Made by a program: the position numbers and the translations under genes. The notes below the pieces were generated by a model that was given only the letters and a program-made list of their open reading frames with translations, made no database searches and was not told the DNA's origin. A DNA stretch of 64,000 nt, from the NCBI RefSeq assembly GCF_056746865.1, contig NZ_CM163382.1; one strand, written 5' to 3'. Each line of letters opens with the position of its first letter. Positions within the stretch are counted from its first letter, which is position 1. This document shows positions 21,161-64,000 of the stretch, piece by piece.

Positions 21161-21625
21161 CGACAACCGATGCCTGATGCGCCGCTGACGCGGCTTATCA
21201 GGCCTACGGGATGAACTGAACTGTAGGTCGGATAAGACGCATAGCGTCGCATCCGACAACCGATGCCTGATGCGCCGCTGACGCGGCTTATCAGGCCTAC
21301 GGGGTGAACTGAACTGTAGGTCGGATAAGACGCATAGCGTCGCATCCGACAACCGATGCCTGATGCGCCGCTGACGCGGCTTATCAGGCCTACGGGGCGT
21401 GCTGAACTGTAGGTCGGATAAGACGTATGGCGTCGCATCCGACAACCGATGCCTGATGCGCCGCTGACGCGACTTATCAGGCCTACGGGGTGAACTGAAC
21501 TGTAGGTCGGATAAGACGCATGGCGTCGCATCCGACAACCGATGCCTGATGCGACGCTGACGCGGCTTATCAGGCCTGCGGGGTGAACTGAACTGTAGGT
21601 CGGATAAGACGCATAGCGTCGCATC
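21161..21625. repeat. tandem array of five 93-bp units built from inverted REP palindromes (BIME-type)
   Basis: cgacaaccgatgcc recurs at 21161, 21254, 21347, 21440, 21533; spurious ORFs 20960..21790 and 21085..21624 show a 31-aa periodic peptide. Confidence 0.9.
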
Positions 21626-21671
21626 CGACAACAATCTCGACCCTACAAATGATAACAATGACGAGGACAAT

Positions 21672-26252: not shown

Positions 26253-26278
26253 GGTATTGTCGGATGCGTCGTGTGGCG

Positions 26279-26994
26279 CATCCGACACCGTGCGCCGATG
26301 CCTGATGCGACGCTGACGCGTCTTATCATGCCTACAGGCCTGAACCGTAGGTCGGATAAGGCGCTCGCGCCGCATCCGACACCGTGCGCCGATGCCTGAT
26401 GCGACGCTGGCGCGTCTTATCATGCCTACAGGTCTGAACCGTAGGTCGGATAAGGCGCTCGCGCCGCATCCGACACCGTGCGCAGATGCCTGATACGACG
26501 CTGGCGCGTCTTATCATGCCTACAGGCCTGAACCGTAGGTCGGATAAGGCGCTCGCGCCGCATCCGACACCGTGCGCCGATGCCTGATGCGACGCTGGTG
26601 CGTCTTATCATGCCTACAGGCCTGAACCGTAGGTCGGATAAGGCGCTCGCGCCGCATCCGACACCGTGCGCAGATGCCTGATGCGACGCTGGTGCGTCTT
26701 ATCATGCCTACAGGCCTGAACCGTAGGTCGGATAAGGCGCTCGCGCCGCATCCGACACCGTGCGCAGATGCCTGATACGACGCTGGCGCGTCTTATCATG
26801 CCTACAGGCCTGAACCGTAGGTCGGATAAGGCGCTCGCGCCGCATCCGACACCGTGCGCAGATGCCTGATGCGACGCTGGTGCGTCTTATCATGCCTACA
26901 GGTCTGAACCGTAGGTCGGATAAGGCGCTCGCGTCGCATCCGACACCCCGCGCCGATGCCTGATGCGACGCTGACGCGTCTTATCAGGCCTACC
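26279..26994. repeat. tandem array of about 7.5 units of a 94-bp REP-pair repeat (BIME-type)
   Basis: catccgacacc recurs every 94 bp from 26279 to 26937; five identical-frame 61-aa spurious ORFs at 94-bp spacing in ORF track. Confidence 0.9.
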
Positions 26995-48929: not shown

Positions 48930-49040
48930 AAGTCGTGCGCAGATGCCTGATGCGACGCTATGCGCGTCTTATCATGCCTACGGCCTGCGGGCGAAATGTA
49001 GGCGGATAAGGCGTTCACGCCGCATCCGGCAGTCGTGCAC
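48930..49040. repeat. REP palindrome cluster between yaiL and frmB
   Basis: gcagatgcctgatgcgacgctatgcgcgtcttatcatgcctacgg ... ggcggataaggcgttcacgccgcatccggcag. Confidence 0.65.
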
Positions 49041-49045
49041 TATTA

Positions 49046-49879
49046 TTAACGCATATTCAGTTTATTGGCGTGATAGGCAATATGCTCGCCAATAAAACTG
49101 GAGACAAAATAATAGCTGTGATCATAACCCTCGTGATAACGGATTAACGTCTTGATATTCATCTCCTGGCAGATCTTTTCAAGATTTGGAGTCCGCAGCT
49201 GTTCTGCGTAAAAATCATCACTCAACCCCTGATCAACCATGATTTCCGCAACGCGTTGACCTTGTGAAATAAGGCTCACCGGGTCGTAATCCAACCAGGC
49301 TTCTTTATTTTCACCAAGATATGCGGTAAAGGCTTGCTGTCCCCACGGTACTTGCGATGGGGAGACAATGGGCGAAAACGCTGAGACGCTGACATATTCA
49401 TCTGGATTACGTAACGCCAGCACCAGTGCGCCCAGCCCGCCCATAGAATGACCTGAGATAGACTTTCTGGCCGTTGCCGGAAAATGTTGCATCACTAAAT
49501 CCGGCAGCTCGTTGCGGATATAGTCATACATTTTGTAATGTTCATTCCACGGCGCTTGCGTTGCGTTCAGGTAAAACCCGGCACCTTGCCCGAGATCGTA
49601 ACGGTCAGCATCTGCGACATGACTGCCTCGCGGACTGGTGTCCGGCGCAACAACAATAATGTTGTGCTCAGCCGCGTAACGTTGCATCCCCGATTTAGTA
49701 ATGAAATTCTGCTCGTTGCAAGTCAGCCCTGAAAGCCAGTACAACACCGGCAATTTTTCACTTGCGGCTTTTGGTGGGAGATAGACGCCGACATTCATTT
49801 CACATTTCAGTGATGGGGAATAATGCCGATACACATTTTGCCAGCCGCCAAAGCTGGCATGTTTTTCAATGAGTTCCAT
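49046..49879 (-). CDS. frmB: S-formylglutathione hydrolase
   Basis: ORF track 277 aa; esterase D family, GHSMGG. Confidence 0.95.
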   Translation of the reverse strand: MELIEKHASFGGWQNVYRHYSPSLKCEMNVGVYLPPKAASEKLPVLYWLSGLTCNEQNFITKSGMQRYAAEHNIIVVAPDTSPRGSHVADADRYDLGQGAGFYLNATQAPWNEHYKMYDYIRNELPDLVMQHFPATARKSISGHSMGGLGALVLALRNPDEYVSVSAFSPIVSPSQVPWGQQAFTAYLGENKEAWLDYDPVSLISQGQRVAEIMVDQGLSDDFYAEQLRTPNLEKICQEMNIKTLIRYHEGYDHSYYFVSSFIGEHIAYHANKLNMR

Positions 49880-49970
49880 CAGTCATTATCTCACGGTTAA
49901 TCCCCCGGACGGCTGCCCGGGGAGAGTATTAAGAACCCCGTCTGAACTGGACGGGTAAACCTGCGGGAAA

Positions 49971-51110
<1,140 letters not shown>

Positions 51111-51114
51111 TCAG

Positions 51115-51390
51115 CTATTTAAGATAGGCACGAACCAGTTCAATAGTGTCGTCAACGGATTGGCTGACTTCGCGGCTGTAGCAGTCATTTCGGTCAAACG
51201 TTTCCCGGATATGGCTTTCAAGCACTTCTGCCATCAGCCCGTTAGCCGCGCCCCGAACGGCAGCGATCTGTTGGAGTATGGCACGGCATTCGGCATCACC
51301 CTCCAGCGACCGTTCCAGAGCATCAATCTGCCCCCGAATACGACGAACTCGAGTAAGGACCTTTTTCTTCTCTTCCGGAGTACTGGGCAT
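51115..51390 (-). CDS. frmR: formaldehyde-responsive repressor (RcnR/CsoR family)
   Basis: ORF track frame 51115..51411; start set to [21 protein letters not shown] (91 aa). Confidence 0.9.
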
Positions 51391-51416
51391 TTCGCACCTC
51401 ATCATCTGCACGCAAT

Positions 51417-51465
51417 ATACTATAGGGGGGTATGCTATATGTCAATGCATACCCCCCTATAGTAT
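51417..51465 (-). promoter_or_regulatory. candidate FrmR operator: perfect 19-bp inverted repeat with G6/C6 tracts, 11-bp spacer
   Basis: atactataggggggtatgc tatatgtcaat gcatacccccctatagtat, 27-75 bp upstream of frmR ATG. Confidence 0.75.
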
Positions 51466-51577
51466 ATAACACTGGAGAATAAAATTTATCCGGTGAATGT
51501 GGTCGGAAAACAAAGAGGAAAGGGGGTGGGGCTAATCGGCAGGGAAGGCCGCCCCGGATAGCGGGCGGCAGAAGCAA

Positions 51578-52351
51578 TCAGAATTTCCAGGTCAGATGGG
51601 CTGCAAGTTGCAGACCGTTATAATCATCGGTTGGGGTGTCGTACCACACTTTACCTGCCGTCAGCCCGAGATTAAGTTGCTCAGTCAGCGGTTGAATACG
51701 TTGCAAACTGACGCTCTTCATGCTGCCGTAGCGTGTTTCTGGCGTCCAGTCATAGGTGTAAGCACCTGTTCCGCGGCTTAGCCATAGTTGCGTATAACCA
51801 GTGCCGCGCGGGTCATTCAGACGCACGGAAATCATATTGCTGTAACTACCACCTGCATCGCTGGAGTCATAATGGGTATAGCGGTAGCTGGAGATCACCG
51901 GGCCAGTATAGAGTGATACGCCGCCTTGCCAGGCATCGACTTCGACATCATCGTAATATTTAGTGTAGCGATAACCGGTCGTGAAAAGCGTTTTTGGCAA
52001 CAGTGCCAGGTTAATATCCTGACGAAAATCCTGGCGGGCAAAGACCGGCGTATTATCCGCAAAGGCAATACCCATTCGGGTTGTCAGCCAGTTATTCCAT
52101 TTATACCAGACCGCACCCTGACCGCGAGTGGCATTGAAATGTTCAGTTTCATAATCACGACGCCCCTGGGAAAGATTAAAAAGCAGCGTTGCGTTTTCAA
52201 CTTTCGCCACCAGTTCAGCATACGCTAAATTACGGTTGCCATGATCGCCAGAATAATCGGTAAAATCGTAGCCCGCGGTAATGGAAGTTAACCCGGCATA
52301 AGCGGGCAATGTGCTAAAAATTGCTGCCGCTAATAACGTCCGTTTTATCAT
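51578..52351 (-). CDS. yaiO: outer membrane beta-barrel protein
   Basis: ORF track 257 aa; signal peptide; C-terminal aromatic residue (WKF). Confidence 0.9.
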   Translation of the reverse strand: MIKRTLLAAAIFSTLPAYAGLTSITAGYDFTDYSGDHGNRNLAYAELVAKVENATLLFNLSQGRRDYETEHFNATRGQGAVWYKWNNWLTTRMGIAFADNTPVFARQDFRQDINLALLPKTLFTTGYRYTKYYDDVEVDAWQGGVSLYTGPVISSYRYTHYDSSDAGGSYSNMISVRLNDPRGTGYTQLWLSRGTGAYTYDWTPETRYGSMKSVSLQRIQPLTEQLNLGLTAGKVWYDTPTDDYNGLQLAAHLTWKF

Positions 52352-52352
52352 T

Positions 52353-53045
52353 TTAATCTCCTGTACGGATAAGTTCTTGTCGGAGTGAATAAGTTCCGGG
52401 AGGTAAATTACGTTCTACAATCACGCGCGGGCCAAGTTGCGTGTTCGGGGAAATAATTCGCCCAGGCAAAATAATAACTTGTACGCCAAGGCGTGAACGC
52501 TGCCCGATATAACAACCTAATTTATCGCATCCGGTAGCGATAATTCCCTCTGGAGTTCGAACAGACACGGGCTGTTGATCCAGACGATGATTACTGGTAC
52601 GTACTTGTGCGCCCAAATATGCCTGGTTTGCAACTACCGAGTCGGCGATAAAGCATTGCGGACCAATCGTTGCTTCCGCTTCAATAACCGCATTTTTAAT
52701 TTCGGTGGCGAAACCAATTTTTACGCCATTGCTGATTATTGTGCCAGGACGAATAAACGCATAATTACCTATCAGGCAGTTTGCGCCAATCACTACCGGA
52801 CCCTGAATAACGGCACCGTGACAAATACGGGTATTCGCGCCGATAACAACTTCACCTGCAGTTTCATCAATAATTACCTGGTCTGCAATCTGAATATTTT
52901 TCTCTTTAACATTAAGCTTCAGAAAGTTTTTCAGTTCCTGTGACAGAAGGTTGGGAATAAGAGGTTGACGCTTCCACCAGTGCGGAATAGCGGGTGGGTT
53001 TGTCGCGCTGAGGTTCGCGTCCAGTAAAAAAGGCAATAAGTCCAT
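52353..53045 (-). CDS. yaiX: hexapeptide-repeat acyltransferase, apparently intact
   Basis: ORF track frame 52353..53063 (236 aa); left-handed beta-helix repeats; 5' end overlaps yaiP 3' end by more than 130 bp so the true start is uncertain. Confidence 0.65.
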   Translation of the reverse strand: MDLLPFLLDANLSATNPPAIPHWWKRQPLIPNLLSQELKNFLKLNVKEKNIQIADQVIIDETAGEVVIGANTRICHGAVIQGPVVIGANCLIGNYAFIRPGTIISNGVKIGFATEIKNAVIEAEATIGPQCFIADSVVANQAYLGAQVRTSNHRLDQQPVSVRTPEGIIATGCDKLGCYIGQRSRLGVQVIILPGRIISPNTQLGPRVIVERNLPPGTYSLRQELIRTGD

Positions 53046-54108
53046 AAATAATCCAGATGGCATAAGCTAATAATACATACACAACGGAAAGCGGTGCTAA
53101 AGGCACCAACAACCAGCAACGATGAAACCAGGCGCTAAAAGCACCAATAACACAAACTACGCCGACCCAGATAAGCGGAAACATTGCCAACACCACACCA
53201 TACGGCCCGGTGGTGATGAATTCATTAAACCAGGTAGTGAGATAAATCCCAACGCCATAAAGCACAACCAACAGCATAGGAAATATACTGAAGATACCGA
53301 AGCGGCTAAATAAAAGCCTTTTATGCAGGCGCATACAGACCGCGTAGCCCACAATCCAACGCCGCCAGCGACGCCATTCCTCACGCGGGCTGTTGCATTC
53401 CTGTGGGTATACGATGCAGCGATTCGCCTGCCGAATACGATAGCCGTTTGCCACCAATGTCCAGGTGAGATCAAGGTCTTCGACTTTAGTACGATCAGAG
53501 AAACCGAACTTACGCAATACATCAGTACGGAACATCCCGCAGGCACCGCTGATAATAAACGGTGCGCCGCCCAGGAGCTGCTGTAGCGTGCGCTTCATAA
53601 CAATCATCGGCAACTTTACGGTCGCGCGGATGTGCGGTAACAGACCCGCGCCTTTCAACGCAGTAGAGGGAATGCCGCCTACGGCATCAGCACCGCGCTC
53701 TATTTCTGCAAGCATATAGCCCATTCCGTCTTGATCGGGCGGAACATAGGTGTCGGCATCACTTAAAAAAACCTGGTCGCAGGTGGCGTAATTGAGGCCA
53801 TTCATCAGCGCACCACCTTTACCGGTATTTTTTTGCGTGACGGCAACAAAGCGGTCGCCCCATTTGCGTTTGACTTCCGCCATGACCGCTTCGGTATTGT
53901 CCGTGGAGCCGTCGTTTACGCAAATTACCCGGCAAAAATAAGGATTACGCAGCAGATTATCCAGTGACTGTGCCAGACACGGGCCTTCGTTATAAGCAGG
54001 TATAATGGCGTCAATACAGCCTTTCTTTTGACTGGGTTTACGTTTTAGCGTACTTAAAAACCATAGCAACATTGCTATGGACATACAGATAAATATCCAG
54101 GTTTTCAT
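52912..54108 (-). CDS. yaiP: family 2 glycosyltransferase, membrane-associated
   Basis: ORF track 398 aa; GT-A motifs (VICVNDGSTDNT, DAD); C-terminal TM helices. Confidence 0.85.
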   Translation of the reverse strand: MKTWIFICMSIAMLLWFLSTLKRKPSQKKGCIDAIIPAYNEGPCLAQSLDNLLRNPYFCRVICVNDGSTDNTEAVMAEVKRKWGDRFVAVTQKNTGKGGALMNGLNYATCDQVFLSDADTYVPPDQDGMGYMLAEIERGADAVGGIPSTALKGAGLLPHIRATVKLPMIVMKRTLQQLLGGAPFIISGACGMFRTDVLRKFGFSDRTKVEDLDLTWTLVANGYRIRQANRCIVYPQECNSPREEWRRWRRWIVGYAVCMRLHKRLLFSRFGIFSIFPMLLVVLYGVGIYLTTWFNEFITTGPYGVVLAMFPLIWVGVVCVIGAFSAWFHRCWLLVPLAPLSVVYVLLAYAIWIIYGLIAFFTGREPQRDKPTRYSALVEASTSYSQPSVTGTEKLSEA

Positions 54109-54117
54109 GCAATTTGC

Positions 54118-54789
54118 TCAAAGAATCATTTTATGAATTACAAAGCCTTCACCCAGATCGCTATTGACCTGTTGCCCGCGAAATTGTGCAACTGCACGCA
54201 GGCGATCATGACGCATATAATCGCGTCGTTCCTGGCTTTTATGTTTTTTTAATGCAGCAAGTTTGACTGTGAAATATTCTTCTTTAACGGATTCAAAAAC
54301 CTGAGGCATAAATGAAAGCCAGGTGCTTGGGGTTTCGTAGCCGAGAATTTGTGGAATAGTTCGGCAGGCAACCATTGAAGCTTGATAAACAGCAAGATGA
54401 TCCTGATGGCGGTCGGCATCATGCATGGTATATACCCGCATGATTTCAACATCAGAAGGAATTTGATTTTTAATGATGTCTTCCAGGGCGGAAATCATAT
54501 CATTGAGCTGCAAATGCGCGCGGGTGTCAGCAAAATTAAGATGAATAGTTTGGTGGCACCCTAATATCTTTAGGGCGTTGCGCGATTCTTCATGGCGATC
54601 GATTATTCCATCTGTGCCAGAGTTGCCGGTAGTCATCACCACGGCTGCGATATAAATTCCTTTTTGCGCAAGACGAGCAAGCGACGCGCCACAGCCCAAT
54701 TCTATATCGTCAGGATGTGCGTCAATAGCAAGGATACCCTTTCTTTTATTTGCCGAAGAAAGGATGGCTGAATCTAAAACCTTATCCAC
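54118..54789 (-). CDS. yaiS: PIG-L/LmbE-family deacetylase
   Basis: ORF track 223 aa; N-terminal AHPDDIELG motif; exact start uncertain. Confidence 0.75.
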   Translation of the reverse strand: MDKVLDSAILSSANKRKGILAIDAHPDDIELGCGASLARLAQKGIYIAAVVMTTGNSGTDGIIDRHEESRNALKILGCHQTIHLNFADTRAHLQLNDMISALEDIIKNQIPSDVEIMRVYTMHDADRHQDHLAVYQASMVACRTIPQILGYETPSTWLSFMPQVFESVKEEYFTVKLAALKKHKSQERRDYMRHDRLRAVAQFRGQQVNSDLGEGFVIHKMIL

Positions 54790-55397
54790 TTAATGACACT
54801 CCATTTTATTTATTATACTACAAGCACAACGATGCCCGCAGAGACGTAATCTCTGGCACAGACAGATGCTAATTTTTAAGTGTTAAAAATTACTGATAGC
54901 TGAAAAATAAGGGGCTTTCAGGTACGGGGATACGACTGCGTAATCTTTTATGTAGTTCATATGTTAAGTGTTTGTGTGTTTGGTTTGTATAGTTATTTTG
55001 TTTTATATATTGTATTTAGATGTGATTTAGTTTGTCAATTAATTACATATTAAAAATATGTTCTAGGCACAAATATGGATTATATACATTATGTGAATGT
55101 ATTATGTGGTTGATTGAGAATGATACAGTTATATATGCAATGTGAATATAATGATTTCATTATATGTATTGCTGTTAATAAAATAAAAGACATTATGTTC
55201 TGCTTGTTTATGCATTAATAAAAATGAAGTGCAGTAACTTACTGAATTGTCAGCGTGGGTGTAATTGCATATTTAATCTTTCCTTTGCCGCTTTTTTGCT
55301 AAGAATAAAATCATCTGTGCGATAACGACTAATTCTTTTAATGAATGTTTTTATTCCTGAATACTGCTCCTATAACAAGACAGGGGAGCAGACAATC

Positions 55398-56360
55398 ATG
55401 GCAATTTCATCGCGTAACACACTTCTTGCCGCACTGGCATTCATCGCTTTTCAGGCACAGGCGGTGAACGTCACCGTGGCCTATCAAACCTCCGCTGAAC
55501 CGGCGAAAGTGGCTCAGGCTGATAACACCTTTGCTAAAGAGAGCGGGGCGACGGTGGACTGGCGTAAGTTTGACAGCGGAGCCAGCATCGTGCGGGCGCT
55601 GGCTTCAGGCGATGTCCAAATCGGTAACCTCGGTTCCAGCCCATTAGCGGTGGCAGCCAGCCAACAGGTGCCGATTGAAGTCTTCTTACTGGCGTCAAAA
55701 CTGGGTAACTCCGAAGCGCTGGTGGTAAAGAAAACTATCAGCAAACCGGAAGATCTGATTGGCAAACGCATCGCCGTACCGTTTATCTCCACCACCCATT
55801 ACAGCCTGCTGGCGGCGCTGAAACACTGGGGTATAAAACCCGGACAAGTGGAGATAGTGAACCTGCAGCCACCCGCGATTATCGCCGCATGGCAACGGGG
55901 AGACATTGATGGTGCTTATGTCTGGGCACCGGCGGTTAACGCCCTGGAAAAAGACGGCAAGGTGCTGACCGATTCTGAACAGGTCGGGCAGTGGGGCGCG
56001 CCGACGCTGGATGTTTGGGTAGTGCGCAAAGATTTTGCCGAGAAACATCCTGAGGTCGTGAAAGCGTTCGCTAAAAGCGCCATCGATGCTCAGCAACCGT
56101 ACATTGCTAACCCAGACGCGTGGCTGAAACAGCCGGAAAACATCAGCAAGCTGGCGCGTTTAAGCGGCGTGCCGGAAGGTGACGTGCCGGGGCTGGTGAA
56201 GGGGAATACCTATCTGACGCCGCAGCAACAAACGGCAGAACTGACCGGACCGGTGAACAAAGCAATTATCGACACCGCGCAGTTTTTGAAAGAGCAGGGC
56301 AAAGTCCCCGCCGTGGCGAATGATTACAGCCAGTACGTTACCTCGCGCTTCGTACAATAA
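55398..56360 (+). CDS. tauA: taurine ABC transporter periplasmic binding protein
   Basis: ORF track frame 55341..56360; start set to MAISSRNTLLAALAFIAFQAQA (320 aa); GGGGAG Shine-Dalgarno. Confidence 0.95.
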   Translation: MAISSRNTLLAALAFIAFQAQAVNVTVAYQTSAEPAKVAQADNTFAKESGATVDWRKFDSGASIVRALASGDVQIGNLGSSPLAVAASQQVPIEVFLLASKLGNSEALVVKKTISKPEDLIGKRIAVPFISTTHYSLLAALKHWGIKPGQVEIVNLQPPAIIAAWQRGDIDGAYVWAPAVNALEKDGKVLTDSEQVGQWGAPTLDVWVVRKDFAEKHPEVVKAFAKSAIDAQQPYIANPDAWLKQPENISKLARLSGVPEGDVPGLVKGNTYLTPQQQTAELTGPVNKAIIDTAQFLKEQGKVPAVANDYSQYVTSRFVQ

Positions 56361-56372
56361 AAGGAGGCGCGG

Positions 56373-57140
56373 ATGCTGCAAATCTCTCATCTCTATGCCG
56401 ATTATGGCGGCAAACTGGCGTTGGAAGATATCAACCTGACGCTGGAAAGCGGCGAGCTGCTGGTGGTGCTGGGGCCGTCTGGCTGCGGCAAAACCACCTT
56501 GCTGAATCTGATTGCCGGTTTTGTGCCTTATCAGCATGGCAGCATTCAACTGGCGGGTAAGTGCATTGAGGGACCGGGAGCAGAGCGGGGCGTGGTTTTT
56601 CAGAATGAAGGGCTGTTGCCGTGGCGTAATGTGGTAGACAACGTGGCGTTCGGCCTGCAACTGGCAGGTGTAGAGAAAGCACTGCGCCTGGAAATCGCGC
56701 ACCAGATGCTGAAAAAAGTGGGGCTGGAAGGCGCAGAAAAACGCTATATCTGGCAGCTTTCCGGCGGTCAACGTCAGCGGGTAGGGATTGCCCGCGCGCT
56801 GGCGGCGAATCCCCAGCTGTTATTACTCGACGAACCGTTTGGCGCGCTGGACGCCTTCACCCGCGATCAGATGCAAACTCTGCTGCTGAAACTCTGGCAG
56901 GAGACAGGTAAGCAGGTGCTGTTGATTACCCACGATATAGAAGAAGCGGTGTTTATGGCAACCGAACTGGTTCTGCTTTCACCCGGCCCAGGCCGTGTGC
57001 TGGAGCGGCTGCCGCTCAACTTTGCTCGCCGCTTTGTTGCGGGAGAGTCGAGCCGCAGCATCAAGTCCGATCCACAATTCATCGCCATGCGCGAATATGT
57101 TTTAAGCCGCGTATTTGAGCAACGGGAGGCGTTCTCATGA
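56373..57140 (+). CDS. tauB: taurine ABC transporter ATP-binding protein
   Basis: ORF track 255 aa; Walker [18 protein letters not shown]. Confidence 0.95.
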
Positions 57141-57964
57141 GTGTGCTCATTAATGAAAAACTGCATTCGCGGCGGCTGAAATGGCGCTGGCCGCTCTCGC
57201 GTCAGGTGACCTTAAGCATTGGCACGTTAGCGGTTTTACTCACTGTATGGTGGACGGTGGCGGCGCTGCAACTGATTAGCCCGCTGTTTTTGCCGCCGCC
57301 GCAACAAGTACTGGCAAAACTGCTCACCATTGCCGGACCGCAGGGATTTATGGACGCCACCCTGTGGCAGCATCTGGCAGCCAGCCTGACGCGCATTGTG
57401 CTGGCGCTACTTGCGGCGGTGTTGATCGGCATTCCGGTTGGGATCGCCATGGGGCTAAGCCCGACGGTGCGCGGCATTCTGGATCCGATAATTGAATTGT
57501 ATCGCCCGGTGCCGCCGCTGGCGTATTTGCCGCTGATGGTGATCTGGTTTGGTATTGGTGAAACCTCGAAGATCTTACTGATCTATTTAGCGATTTTTGC
57601 ACCTGTGGCGATGTCGGCGCTGGCGGGGGTGAAAAGCGCGCAGCAGGTTCGCATTCGTGCCGCCCAGTCGCTGGGTGCCAGCCGTGCGCAGGTGCTGTGG
57701 TTTGTTATTTTGCCCGGTGCGCTGCCGGAAATTCTCACCGGATTACGCATTGGTCTGGGTGTGGGCTGGTCTACCCTGGTGGCGGCGGAGCTGATTGCCG
57801 CGACGCGCGGTTTGGGTTTTATGGTCCAGTCAGCGGGTGAATTTCTCGCGACTGACGTGGTGCTGGCGGGGATCGCGGTGATTGCGATTATCGCCTTTCT
57901 TTTAGAACTGGGTCTGCGCGCGTTACAGCGCCGCCTCACGCCCTGGCATGGAGAAGTACAATGA
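57137..57964 (+). CDS. tauC: taurine ABC transporter permease
   Basis: ORF track 275 aa; 4-bp overlaps with tauB and tauD. Confidence 0.95.
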
Positions 57965-58598
57965 GTGAACGTCTGAGCATTACCCCGCTGGGGCCGTATA
58001 TTGGCGCACAAATTACGGGTGCCGACCTGACGCGCCCGTTAAGTGATAACCAGTTTGAACAGCTTTACCATGCGGTACTGCGTCATCAGGTGGTGTTTCT
58101 GCGTGAACAGGCCATTACGCCGCAGCAGCAACGCGCGCTGGCCCAGCGTTTTGGCGAGCTGCATATTCATCCTGTTTACCCTCATGCCGAAGGGGTTGAC
58201 GAGATTATCGTACTGGATACTCATAACGATAATCCGCCAGATAACGACAACTGGCATACCGATGTGACATTTATTGAAACGCCTCCTGCTGGGGCGATTC
58301 TGGCGGCGAAAGAGTTACCCTCGACTGGCGGCGATACGCTATGGACCAGCGGTATTGCGGCGTATGAGGCACTCTCTGTTCCCTTCCGCCAGCTGTTGAG
58401 CGGGCTGCGTGCGGAGCATGATTTCCGTAAATCGTTCCCAGAATACAAATACCGCAAAACGGAGGAGGAGCATCAACGCTGGCGCGAGGCGGTCGCGAAA
58501 AATCCGCCGTTACTACATCCGGTGGTGCGAACGCATCCGGTGAGCGGTAAACAGGCGCTGTTTGTGAATGAAGGCTTTACTACGCGATGGATTTGCCC

Positions 58599-59504
58599 CT
58601 ATATTTCCAGACACCTGTTATCACTTAACCCATTACTGGCCCGCTGCCGTAGATATTCCCGTGGCGAGCGATAACCCAGTGCACTATGCGGATGCCATTC
58701 GTTATAATGCTCGAACGCCTCTGCAAGGTTCTTTGCTGCCGTTAACCCGTCTGGTTTAGGCATGATACTGATGTAGTCACGCTTTATCGTTTTCACGAAG
58801 CTCTCTGCTATGCCGTTACTCTCCGGACTCCGCACCGCCGTGTTCTTCGGTTCAAGCCCCAACATCCGGGCAAACTGCCGTGTTTCATTAGCCCGGTAGC
58901 ATGAACCATTATCCGTCAGCCACTCTACTGGAGACGCCGGAAGCTCGTTGCCGAAGCGGCGTTCCACCGCTCCCAGCATTACGTCCTGTACTGTTTCACT
59001 GTCGAAGCCGCCCGTAGTGACTGCCCAGTGCAGTGCCTCACGGTCACAGCAGTCCAGCGCGAACGTGACTCGCAGTTTTTCTCCGTTATCACAGCGGAAC
59101 TCGAACCCGTCAGAGCACCATCGTTGATTGCTTTCTTTCACGGCCACTTTGCCAGTATGTGCCCGTTTCGATGGCGGTACAGCGGTTTTTCGCTCAAGCA
59201 ACAGCGCATTCTGGCGCATGATCCGGTAAACACGTTTGGCATTGATCGCAGGCATACCATCAAGTTCGGCCTGTCTGCGAAGCAGCGCCCATACCCGACG
59301 ATAACCATACGTGGGCAGCTCTCCGATAACATGGTGTATACGGAGAAGCACATCCGTATCATCTGAGTGACGGCTGCGGCGACCATCTTTCCAGTCATCG
59401 GTTCGTCTGAGAATGACGTGCAACTGCGCACGCGACACCCGGAGACAACGGCTGACTAAGCTTACTCCCCATCCCCGGGCAATAAGGGCGCGTGCGCTAT
59501 CCAC
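58599..59504 (-). CDS. insD: IS2 transposase OrfB (InsD)
   Basis: ORF track 301 aa identical to 14757..15662. Confidence 0.95.
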
Positions 59505-59872
59505 TTTTTTGCACGCCCGTATTCAACGGCTTCTTTAAGGAGTTCATTTTCCATCGTTTTTTTGCCGAGCAGGCGCTGGAGTTCTTTAATCTGCTTCATG
59601 GCAGCAGCAAGTTCAGAGGCAGGAACGACCTGCTCTCCTGCGGCCACAGCAGTAAGACTTCCCTCCTGGTATTGCTTGCGCCAGAGAAATAACTGGCTGG
59701 CTGCCACACCGTGTTGCCGGGCAACAAGGGAGACCGTCATTCCCGGTTCAAAACTCTGCTGAACAATAGCGATCTTTTCCTGTGTAGTACGCCGTCTGCG
59801 TTTCTCCGGTCCTAAGACATCAATCATCTGCTCTCCAATGACTAGTCTAAAAACTAGTATTAAGACTATCAC
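59462..59872 (-). CDS. insC: IS2 transposase OrfA (InsC)
   Basis: ORF track 136 aa identical to 14389..14799. Confidence 0.95.
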
Positions 59873-60157
59873 TTATTTAAGTGATATTGGTTGTCTGGAG
59901 ATTCAGGGGGCCAGTCTACGCGAATTGTTGATGTCAGCGAGAAAGAGAGCGAAGCCTTGTTAAGTTTTTTGTTTGCCCATATCACCAAACCGGAGTTTCA
60001 GGTGCGCTGGCGCTGGCAACCAAATGATATTGCGATTTGGGATAACCGCGTGACTCAGCACTATGCCAATGCGGATTACCTGCCACAGCGGCGGATAATG
60101 CATCGGGCGACAATCCTTGGGGATAAACCGTTTTATCGGGCGGGGTAAGGGGGAAAT

Positions 60158-60177
60158 GCCGGGTTGGATAACCCGGC
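60158..60177. terminator. candidate stem-loop terminator between convergent tauD and hemB
   Basis: gccgggtt ggat aacccggc, perfect 8-bp stem; weak flanking T-tracts. Confidence 0.35.
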
Positions 60178-60187
60178 ATAATGATCA

Positions 60188-61162
60188 TTAACGCAGAATC
60201 TTCTTCTCAGCCAAATCCAGCGCAAAGTAGCTGAAAATCAGATCCGCACCCGCACGCTTAATCGAACCTAAGCTTTCGAGCACGACTTTCTCTTCATCTA
60301 TAGCACCCGCCAGCGCGGCGAACTTAATCATCGCATACTCACCGCTCACCTGATACGCGCCAATCGGCAATTCAGTACGTCCACGCAGCTCACGCACGAT
60401 GTCGAGGTACGCTCCAGCTGGTTTCACCATCAGGCAGTCTGCGCCCTGGGCTTCATCCAGCAATGATTCACGAATCGCCTCACGACGGTTCATTGGGTTC
60501 ATCTGATAGCTTTTGCGGTCGCCTTTTAATGCGCTTCCTGCCGCTTCGCGGAACGGGCCATAAAAGGAAGAGGCAAACTTGGTCGAATACGACATAATCG
60601 CCGTATCTTTAAAGCCCGCAGCGTCCAGCGCCTGGCGAATCGCCTGTACCTGACCATCCATCGCGGCGGAAGGGGCGATGAAGTCCGCACCTGCAGCAGC
60701 TGCAACCACGGCTTGCTTGCCTAAATTTTCCAGAGTCGCGTCGTTGTCGACGCCATGCTCGCACAGCACACCGCAGTGACCGTGAGAAGTGTATTCACAA
60801 AAGCAGGTGTCTGACATCACGATCATTTCAGGCACGGTCTGCTTGCAGATGCGCGACATCCGCGCCACCAGTCCATCTTCCCGCCAGGCATCGCTGCCGG
60901 TTTCATCGGTATGGTGAGAGATGCCGAAAGTCATCACGGAACGAATACCGGCGTTGGCGATGCGTTCAATTTCGCGTGCCAGATGTTTCTCAGGAATGCG
61001 CATCACGCCTGGCATGGCTTCAACGGCTTTGTAGTCGTCAATTTCTTCTTCAACAAAGATCGGCAACACCAGGTCGTTAAGGCTAAGTGTTGTCTCTTCA
61101 AACATAGCGCGCAGCGCAGGAGATTTGCGCAGGCGACGAGGGCGTTGGATTAAGTCTGTCAT
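60188..61162 (-). CDS. hemB: porphobilinogen synthase (delta-aminolevulinate dehydratase)
   Basis: ORF track frame 60188..61273; start set to [18 protein letters not shown] (324 aa). Confidence 0.95.
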
Positions 61163-61687
61163 GGTCTGCCTGATGTTTGTGGAATCGAGGGGCATAGTAT
61201 ACCTGAAGCAGGGTGGGGATGTTTTACGAAAGTTGTCGCGATGTTGACAAGAAGAGAATGAAAGAGAGTCCATGACATCTTTGTAATAGAAACAGCAATA
61301 ATTTCATATTCACTGAAAATATTTTTAATTTTTATTTATATCCCTGGATTATTGTTTTTACGGATTTGATTGCGTTATCAAAAACAGAATGATTTAAAGT
61401 TCATTGGTTATTGATAGATTATTTGTCTGGTTTGTGTGTTTGATATTTTAAATGCATATGCTTTAAAAATGGAACTCCTGTTAACTTGTTGAAACATCAA
61501 GCCTTTATCAATTTTTTCTTTGTGTGTTCCTCCGTGCTTTATATATGTCCGTAACCGGACTTCGGGGAAAGAATAATTGAACCATTCCTCTATAACGCCG
61601 CATAATCGTCAACGCGAAACATAAGATGTTTTCTATGCATTGATAATTGATGGATCAACTTATTACGTCCCTGAGGAGGGATGACAA

Positions 61688-64000
<2,313 letters not shown>

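Follow-up and report, generated by a model that had tools for sequence, protein, structure and literature searches.

A complete IS2 variant splits tauD, the last gene of the tauABCD operon

The tau locus and the inserted element

The window analyzed here, a stretch of 64,000 nucleotides from contig NZ_CM163382.1 (RefSeq assembly GCF_056746865.1), contains tauA, tauB, tauC and tauD in this order between yaiS and the convergent hemB, which matches the arrangement in Escherichia coli K-12 MG1655 and in E. coli CFSAN061770. The three import genes on the plus strand are intact: tauA (55398..56360) is a single open reading frame without internal stop and encodes the taurine-binding periplasmic protein of 320 amino acids, which differs from K-12 TauA at one amino acid, tauB (56373..57140) encodes the ATPase of the ABC transporter (255 amino acids) and tauC (57137..57964) its permease (275 amino acids), with a stop codon that overlaps the start of tauD (ATGA). 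A preliminary description of this DNA had called the taurine import genes intact, and this is borne out by the full length of tauA, tauB and tauC as well as by their DNA, which is 100% identical to the CFSAN061770 genes annotated as complete.

The fourth gene is present in two pieces. The 5' fragment of tauD (57961..58587, plus strand) starts with an ATG at 57961 and comprises codons 1-209, the residues of which align to TauD in PDB 1GQW. The 3' fragment (59924..60148, plus strand) comprises codons 210-283 and the stop codon at 60146-60148, which amounts to 75 codons with the stop or 74 amino acids. Both parts together give 283 amino acids (209 + 74), which equals the full length of TauD in E. 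coli. An interruption of 1,336 bp, made up of an insertion sequence and a duplicated CGCGA, follows codon 209, and the left and right copies of this target-site duplication are located at 58583..58587 and 59919..59923, respectively. Thus, a TauD frame readable up to codon 209 (58587) and then running into an IS2 end, as well as a perfect CGCGA duplication on both sides of the element, were found as previously described. The earlier statement that 74 codons resume directly after the IS is right in the number of codons, but the restart follows the duplicated CGCGA.

As a consequence, the locus holds no uninterrupted reading frame for the whole TauD domain, and the existing frame finishes in IS sequence. 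The fusion ORF now present (57961..58674, plus strand) joins residues 1-209 of TauD to 28 IS-encoded residues, resulting in 237 amino acids, and its stop codon at 58672-58674 lies within the region of the right inverted repeat of IS2. On the other side of the element, an ORF with a TTG start in the left repeat of IS2 (59891-60148) reads in frame into the 3' codons of tauD. Exact-product look-ups of the 237-amino acid fusion ORF and of the 85-amino acid 3' ORF returned no record, a null result that is uninformative, as pseudogene products are often uncalled and contigs break at IS elements. The tauD locus is an IS2-disrupted pseudogene.

The 5' fragment carries the codons for His70, Tyr73, His99, Asp101 and Thr126, and the 3' fragment those for His255, Arg266 and Arg270. 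In TauD structures, the carboxylate of 2-oxoglutarate is bound by Arg266. The iron ligands of TauD are His99, Asp101 and His255, and taurine is bound by His70 and Arg270 (PMC9304159), so that the insertion parts His70, His99 and Asp101 from His255 and Arg270. As neither piece is able to form the active site, we infer that TauD activity is wholly lost; neither fragment would form the catalytic jelly-roll and no active TauD would be made. The position of the cut between the metal ligands also supports the earlier claim that the dioxygenase is not intact. A polar effect on tauABC is not expected, because the insertion affects the final gene of the operon and hemB, which comes next, is convergent.

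The inserted element is a complete IS2 of 1,331 bp on the minus strand (58588..59918) with both reading frames open. It begins with TGGATTTGCCCC... (TGGATTTGCCCCTATATTTCC... from 58588) and finishes with ...GGGGGCCAGTCTA at 59918. Terminal alignment of the two ends yielded a right inverted repeat (IRR) of 41 bp (58588..58628, minus strand) and a left inverted repeat (IRL) of 42 bp (59877..59918, minus strand). Since the transposase genes orfA and orfB are encoded on the minus strand, the IRR abuts the 5' part of tauD and the IRL the 3' part. Compared with IS2A from K-12, the left repeat is unchanged and the right one carries a single substitution. The gene orfB (58599..59504, minus strand) encodes an InsD-like protein of 301 amino acids with an HTH_21 domain and an integrase core of rve and rve_3 (Pfam), and orfA (59462..59827, minus strand) an InsC-like protein of 121 amino acids with an HTH_Tnp_1 domain (Pfam). 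The product of orfA is identical to InsC1 of K-12, and that of orfB differs from InsD1 of K-12 in 10 of 301 residues. Both frames overlap and have an A6G slippery site for -1 frameshifting (~59504-59510), as is characteristic of IS2; the AAAAAAG heptamer is located at IS position 409 directly before the GTG of orfB, and the frameshifting itself is predicted from sequence.

An ungapped comparison with the reference copy, annotated as 'insertion sequence:IS2A' in NC_000913.3 (E. coli K-12 MG1655), revealed 1,275 identical positions out of 1,331 nt (95.8%) and 56 differences. All tested features of IS2 (IS3 family) were found, namely the length of ~1,331 bp, imperfect repeats of 41-42 bp, the 5-bp duplication, the two frames and the sequence identity. 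The naming of the element as IS2 in the preliminary description is therefore supported by the length of K-12 IS2A, by this identity, by the orfA/orfB layout and by the transposase domains. As an identity of 95.8% is borderline under a 95% rule, the element is best described as a variant of IS2, which is complete and presumably active. The nearest IS2 copies elsewhere are 99.6-99.7% identical.

Empty site, second IS2 copy and frequency of the allele

Deleting positions 58588-59923 (the IS and one CGCGA) results in a tauD ORF of 852 nt. A comparison with a tauD-intact strain had been proposed as a check, and CFSAN061770 (NZ_CP023142.1) provides it: its tauD is uninterrupted, identical to the reconstructed gene over 852/852 nt, and contains the empty-site string GGCTTTACTACGCGAATTGTTGATG. 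The protein encoded by the reconstructed gene has a full-length Pfam TauD domain (PF02668, residues 7-272, E = 2e-74), agrees with crystallized E. coli TauD (PDB 1GQW, 1OS7 and others) in 281 of 283 residues, the differences being S19T and D49E, and contains the His-X-Asp...His iron triad (His99, Asp101, His255). After excision of the IS, the region 49000-64000 (13,665 nt) differs from CFSAN061770 by one base. The observation of tauD::IS2 is correct to the base.

CFSAN061770 is the closest genome to the window, and both are collinear over the entire 64 kb, with two IS2 insertions, five mismatches and one gap as the differences. The annotation of this relative also points to defects in two other genes, as yahN (window ~16900-17600) is listed there as a pseudogene with an internal stop and the yaiS-like gene for a PIG-L deacetylase (window 54118-54789) as a partial pseudogene. 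Because the window shares these sequences, both genes are probably defective here too. Furthermore, the window contains two tandem arrays, one near prpB-prpC (21161-21632) with 5.1 copies of a 93-bp unit and one in the prpE-codB gap (26277-26993) with 7.6 copies of a 94-bp unit. Both units are built of REP-like palindromes (GCCTGATGCG...CTTATCAGGCCTAC) and represent ordinary intergenic repeats of the BIME type; in CFSAN061770 a 179-amino acid 'hypothetical protein' is annotated over the 93-bp array.

The second IS2 insertion (14343..15673, plus strand) is 100% identical to the copy in tauD and has the opposite orientation. It occupies the gap between yahK and yahL at a distance of 66 bp upstream of the ATG of yahL, and a duplication of its own, GATAG, flanks it on both sides. 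This copy is missing from CFSAN061770 as well, where the empty site is present, and the 42,914 bp lying between both IS2 copies are 100% identical to CFSAN061770. As each copy has matching flanks, both must have inserted independently and never recombined with each other. A composite transposon made up of the two copies was considered and ruled out due to the separate duplications (CGCGA versus GATAG). IS2 is at present an active element in this lineage, as the two new identical copies show. The inverted identical copies bracket 42.9 kb (prp-cod-cyn-lac-mhp-frm-tauABC), which could constitute an inversion-prone or mobilizable unit.

IS elements were also found at several places around these sites in other genomes. 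In the yahK-yahM region (window ~13100-17000) IS2 is present in 33 complete E. coli genomes, and the two copies inspected are located after yahL (DETEC-C31) and inside yahL (O55:H7 DEC5B); these differing positions suggest a regional target preference of IS2. In the gap between hemB and the autotransporter gene (window equivalent ~61300-61800) six genomes carry an IS2, and the four inspected copies occupy slightly different positions. The IS2 beyond hemB in ZF31/ZF34 is itself interrupted by an IS3, and in K-12 both yaiX::IS2 and yaiT::IS3 are found within a few kilobases of tauABCD. The tau neighborhood gathers IS elements; tauD itself is almost never struck.

Among 5,426 complete E. coli genomes from RefSeq, no IS was detected inside tauD. 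Using the reconstructed tauD as query, a search that is blind to point mutations and small frameshifts, the gene was found in one piece in 5,420 of the 5,426 genomes. The remaining six comprise one genome with a truncated tauD (HNSQ2209) and five without a match. Two copies of IS1 in E. coli HNSQ2209 accompany the loss of tauABC together with the initial 361 nt of tauD, as well as a disruption of the yaiS-like deacetylase gene. Six records with a query coverage of 80% or more were considered as further carriers of the same allele and rejected, since the five inspected have an intact tauD and an IS2 beyond hemB, which the search had merged with the tauD match by joining pieces.

The 30-mers GGCTTTACTACGCGATGGATTTGCCCCTAT and GGGGGCCAGTCTACGCGAATTGTTGATGTC would pick out the tauD::IS2 allele in other assemblies. 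An exact scan with the 30-nt left junction gave 0 matches in metagenome contigs and 0 in GTDB species-representative genomes. A literature search on tauD in combination with IS2 returned only irrelevant papers. Judging from these comparisons, the allele is strain-specific or clone-specific and young. The 5,420 uninterrupted genes suggest that tauD is normally maintained, and therefore tauD::IS2 is probably of recent origin and either neutral or mildly harmful.

Origin of the insertion

The flawless duplication of the target and its closure to the wild-type gene form the signature of transposition and are not what a misassembly would yield. We are highly confident that the locus results from a single, recent and simple transposition of IS2 into tauD, the last gene of tauABCD, in an E. 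coli strain. In this reading an active IS2 copy inserted once at codon 208/209; the sequence shows the 5-bp duplication typical of IS2 and all other bases of the locus unchanged. Precise excision between the CGCGA repeats, a rare but possible event, would restore GGCTTTACTACGCGAATTGTT and with it a perfect tauD. The insertional inactivation of a well-characterized gene by a known IS is already known in kind and routine.

An unlikely possibility is that the insertion is real and yet stems from storage or passage in the laboratory, or that it is confined to part of the sequenced culture. If true, it would say nothing on the biology of the natural isolate. IS elements are well known to transpose in stabs and stocks, and both IS2 copies are very young, as they are missing from a relative that is ~99.99% identical. 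However, the sequence gives no distinction between a laboratory origin and a recent event in nature, and an IS2-active lineage would account equally well for two new copies that arose independently within 64 kb.

A role of selection is also conceivable. One could assume that the loss of TauD with TauABC kept was selected in this lineage and not neutral, resulting in taurine uptake without consumption under sulfur limitation or in a shift to SsuDE-dependent use of taurine, and this we regard as very unlikely. Slightly lower still we place the chance that the insertion as such was favored, for which the intact tauABC speaks, either because TauD is switched off with TauABC kept, which might for example allow taurine accumulation or spare 2-oxoglutarate, or because of an outward promoter borne by IS2. 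A promoter-like match does extend across the left junction (58576-58605; TTTACT, 18 nt, TATATT), but with one match found versus 1.7 expected it is at chance level, and it points into the IS. A scan of 58300-60300 for promoters and terminators found nothing above chance, so that a promoter created by IS2 was dropped, and since hemB is convergent there is no downstream gene to activate. Moreover, the allele occurs in one genome only, against a background of 5,420/5,426 genomes with uninterrupted tauD that indicates purifying selection.

That an IS2 copy was misplaced into tauD when the assembler resolved repeats is highly improbable, even if the setting is prone to such errors. IS2 is multicopy in E. 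coli, with a median of 4 matching places per genome, the window itself contains two 100% identical copies, and the junction was matched in no other assembly among complete genomes, metagenome contigs and GTDB representatives. But a misjoin would not yield a perfect 5-bp duplication around an element of exactly the full length of 1,331 bp, nor would the flanking tauD sequence then join into a gene with 100% identity to that of CFSAN061770, and the two copies were not swapped, since the sibling carries a different duplication (GATAG). Finally, the TTG-start ORF at 59891-60148, in frame with the 3' codons of tauD, could hint that fragment complementation or read-through still provides a functional enzyme, but the separately made parts would have to assemble one jelly-roll with a metal site spanning both, no promoter is evident for the 3' ORF, which runs opposite to IS2 transcription, and such a gene product is not on record in exact-product look-ups, which makes this the most far-fetched of the readings and its probability close to nil.

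Predicted taurine phenotype and comparison with known systems

In E. coli, TauD catalyzes the release of sulfur from taurine, which enters the cell via TauABC only (PMC6906117). The tauABCD genes are needed for the use of taurine as sulfur source and are induced by sulfate starvation (PMC6906117; PMC12585060), and sulfur assimilation from taurine needs TauD or SsuDE (PMC12585060). According to the summary of earlier work given in PMC12585060 (citing Nishikawa 2018, 2022), tauD-deficient E. coli is at first unable to use taurine, and prolonged incubation gives rise to sulfate-transporter mutants, in which repression of ssuEADCB is relieved and taurine is used via SsuDE. The proviso in the preliminary description that another enzyme might stand in for TauD is thus relevant. 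Starting from a single transposition of IS2 into tauD, a strain with this allele would import taurine under sulfate limitation, yet free no sulfite from it. We predict that the use of taurine sulfur is probably impaired in this strain: growth would likely not set in promptly when taurine is the only source of sulfur, and might follow with a delay via the SsuDE monooxygenase. The strain could serve as a natural tauD-null for testing the SsuDE backup outside K-12. In the annotation of the strain, tauD should be labeled as an IS2-disrupted pseudogene, and the insertion matters little beyond that.

The insertion of IS2A into yaiX of K-12 MG1655, ~5 kb upstream of tauA, shares the type of element, the length of 1,331 bp and the orfA/orfB layout with tauD::IS2, and there, too, 5 bp of target sequence are duplicated and the interrupted host gene is annotated as two fragments. 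In contrast, target gene and strain are different, and the two IS copies differ in 56 of 1,331 nt. The same neighborhood is also hit in GPEC87-32-644, PK6, 510016, ZF31/34 and HCP30S3_I2, where IS2 is located between hemB and the yaiT-like autotransporter gene, and the copy in GPEC87-32-644 is 99.7% identical to the IS2 in tauD. In the five of these genomes that were inspected (GPEC87-32-644, PK6, 510016 and ZF31/34; HCP30S3_I2 is only listed), tauD is annotated as intact and the IS lies past hemB, in contrast to the insertion described here.

Like the strain with tauD::IS2, HNSQ2209 is a rare case of an E. coli that has lost TauD naturally and with IS involvement. There, tauABC and the 5' end of tauD are deleted in association with IS1, whereas the IS2 insertion deletes nothing and keeps the transporter genes. 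In this respect tauD::IS2 resembles the laboratory tauD nulls of K-12 (Keio delta-tauD736; van der Ploeg 1996; Nishikawa 2018, 2022), which, as summarized in PMC12585060, have lost the only dedicated taurine-desulfonating enzyme and retain the transporter. As the same loss is combined with a retained transporter here, the same phenotype is expected. The laboratory strains are engineered K-12 deletions, whereas tauD::IS2 is natural, revertible by precise excision and located in a non-K-12 background.
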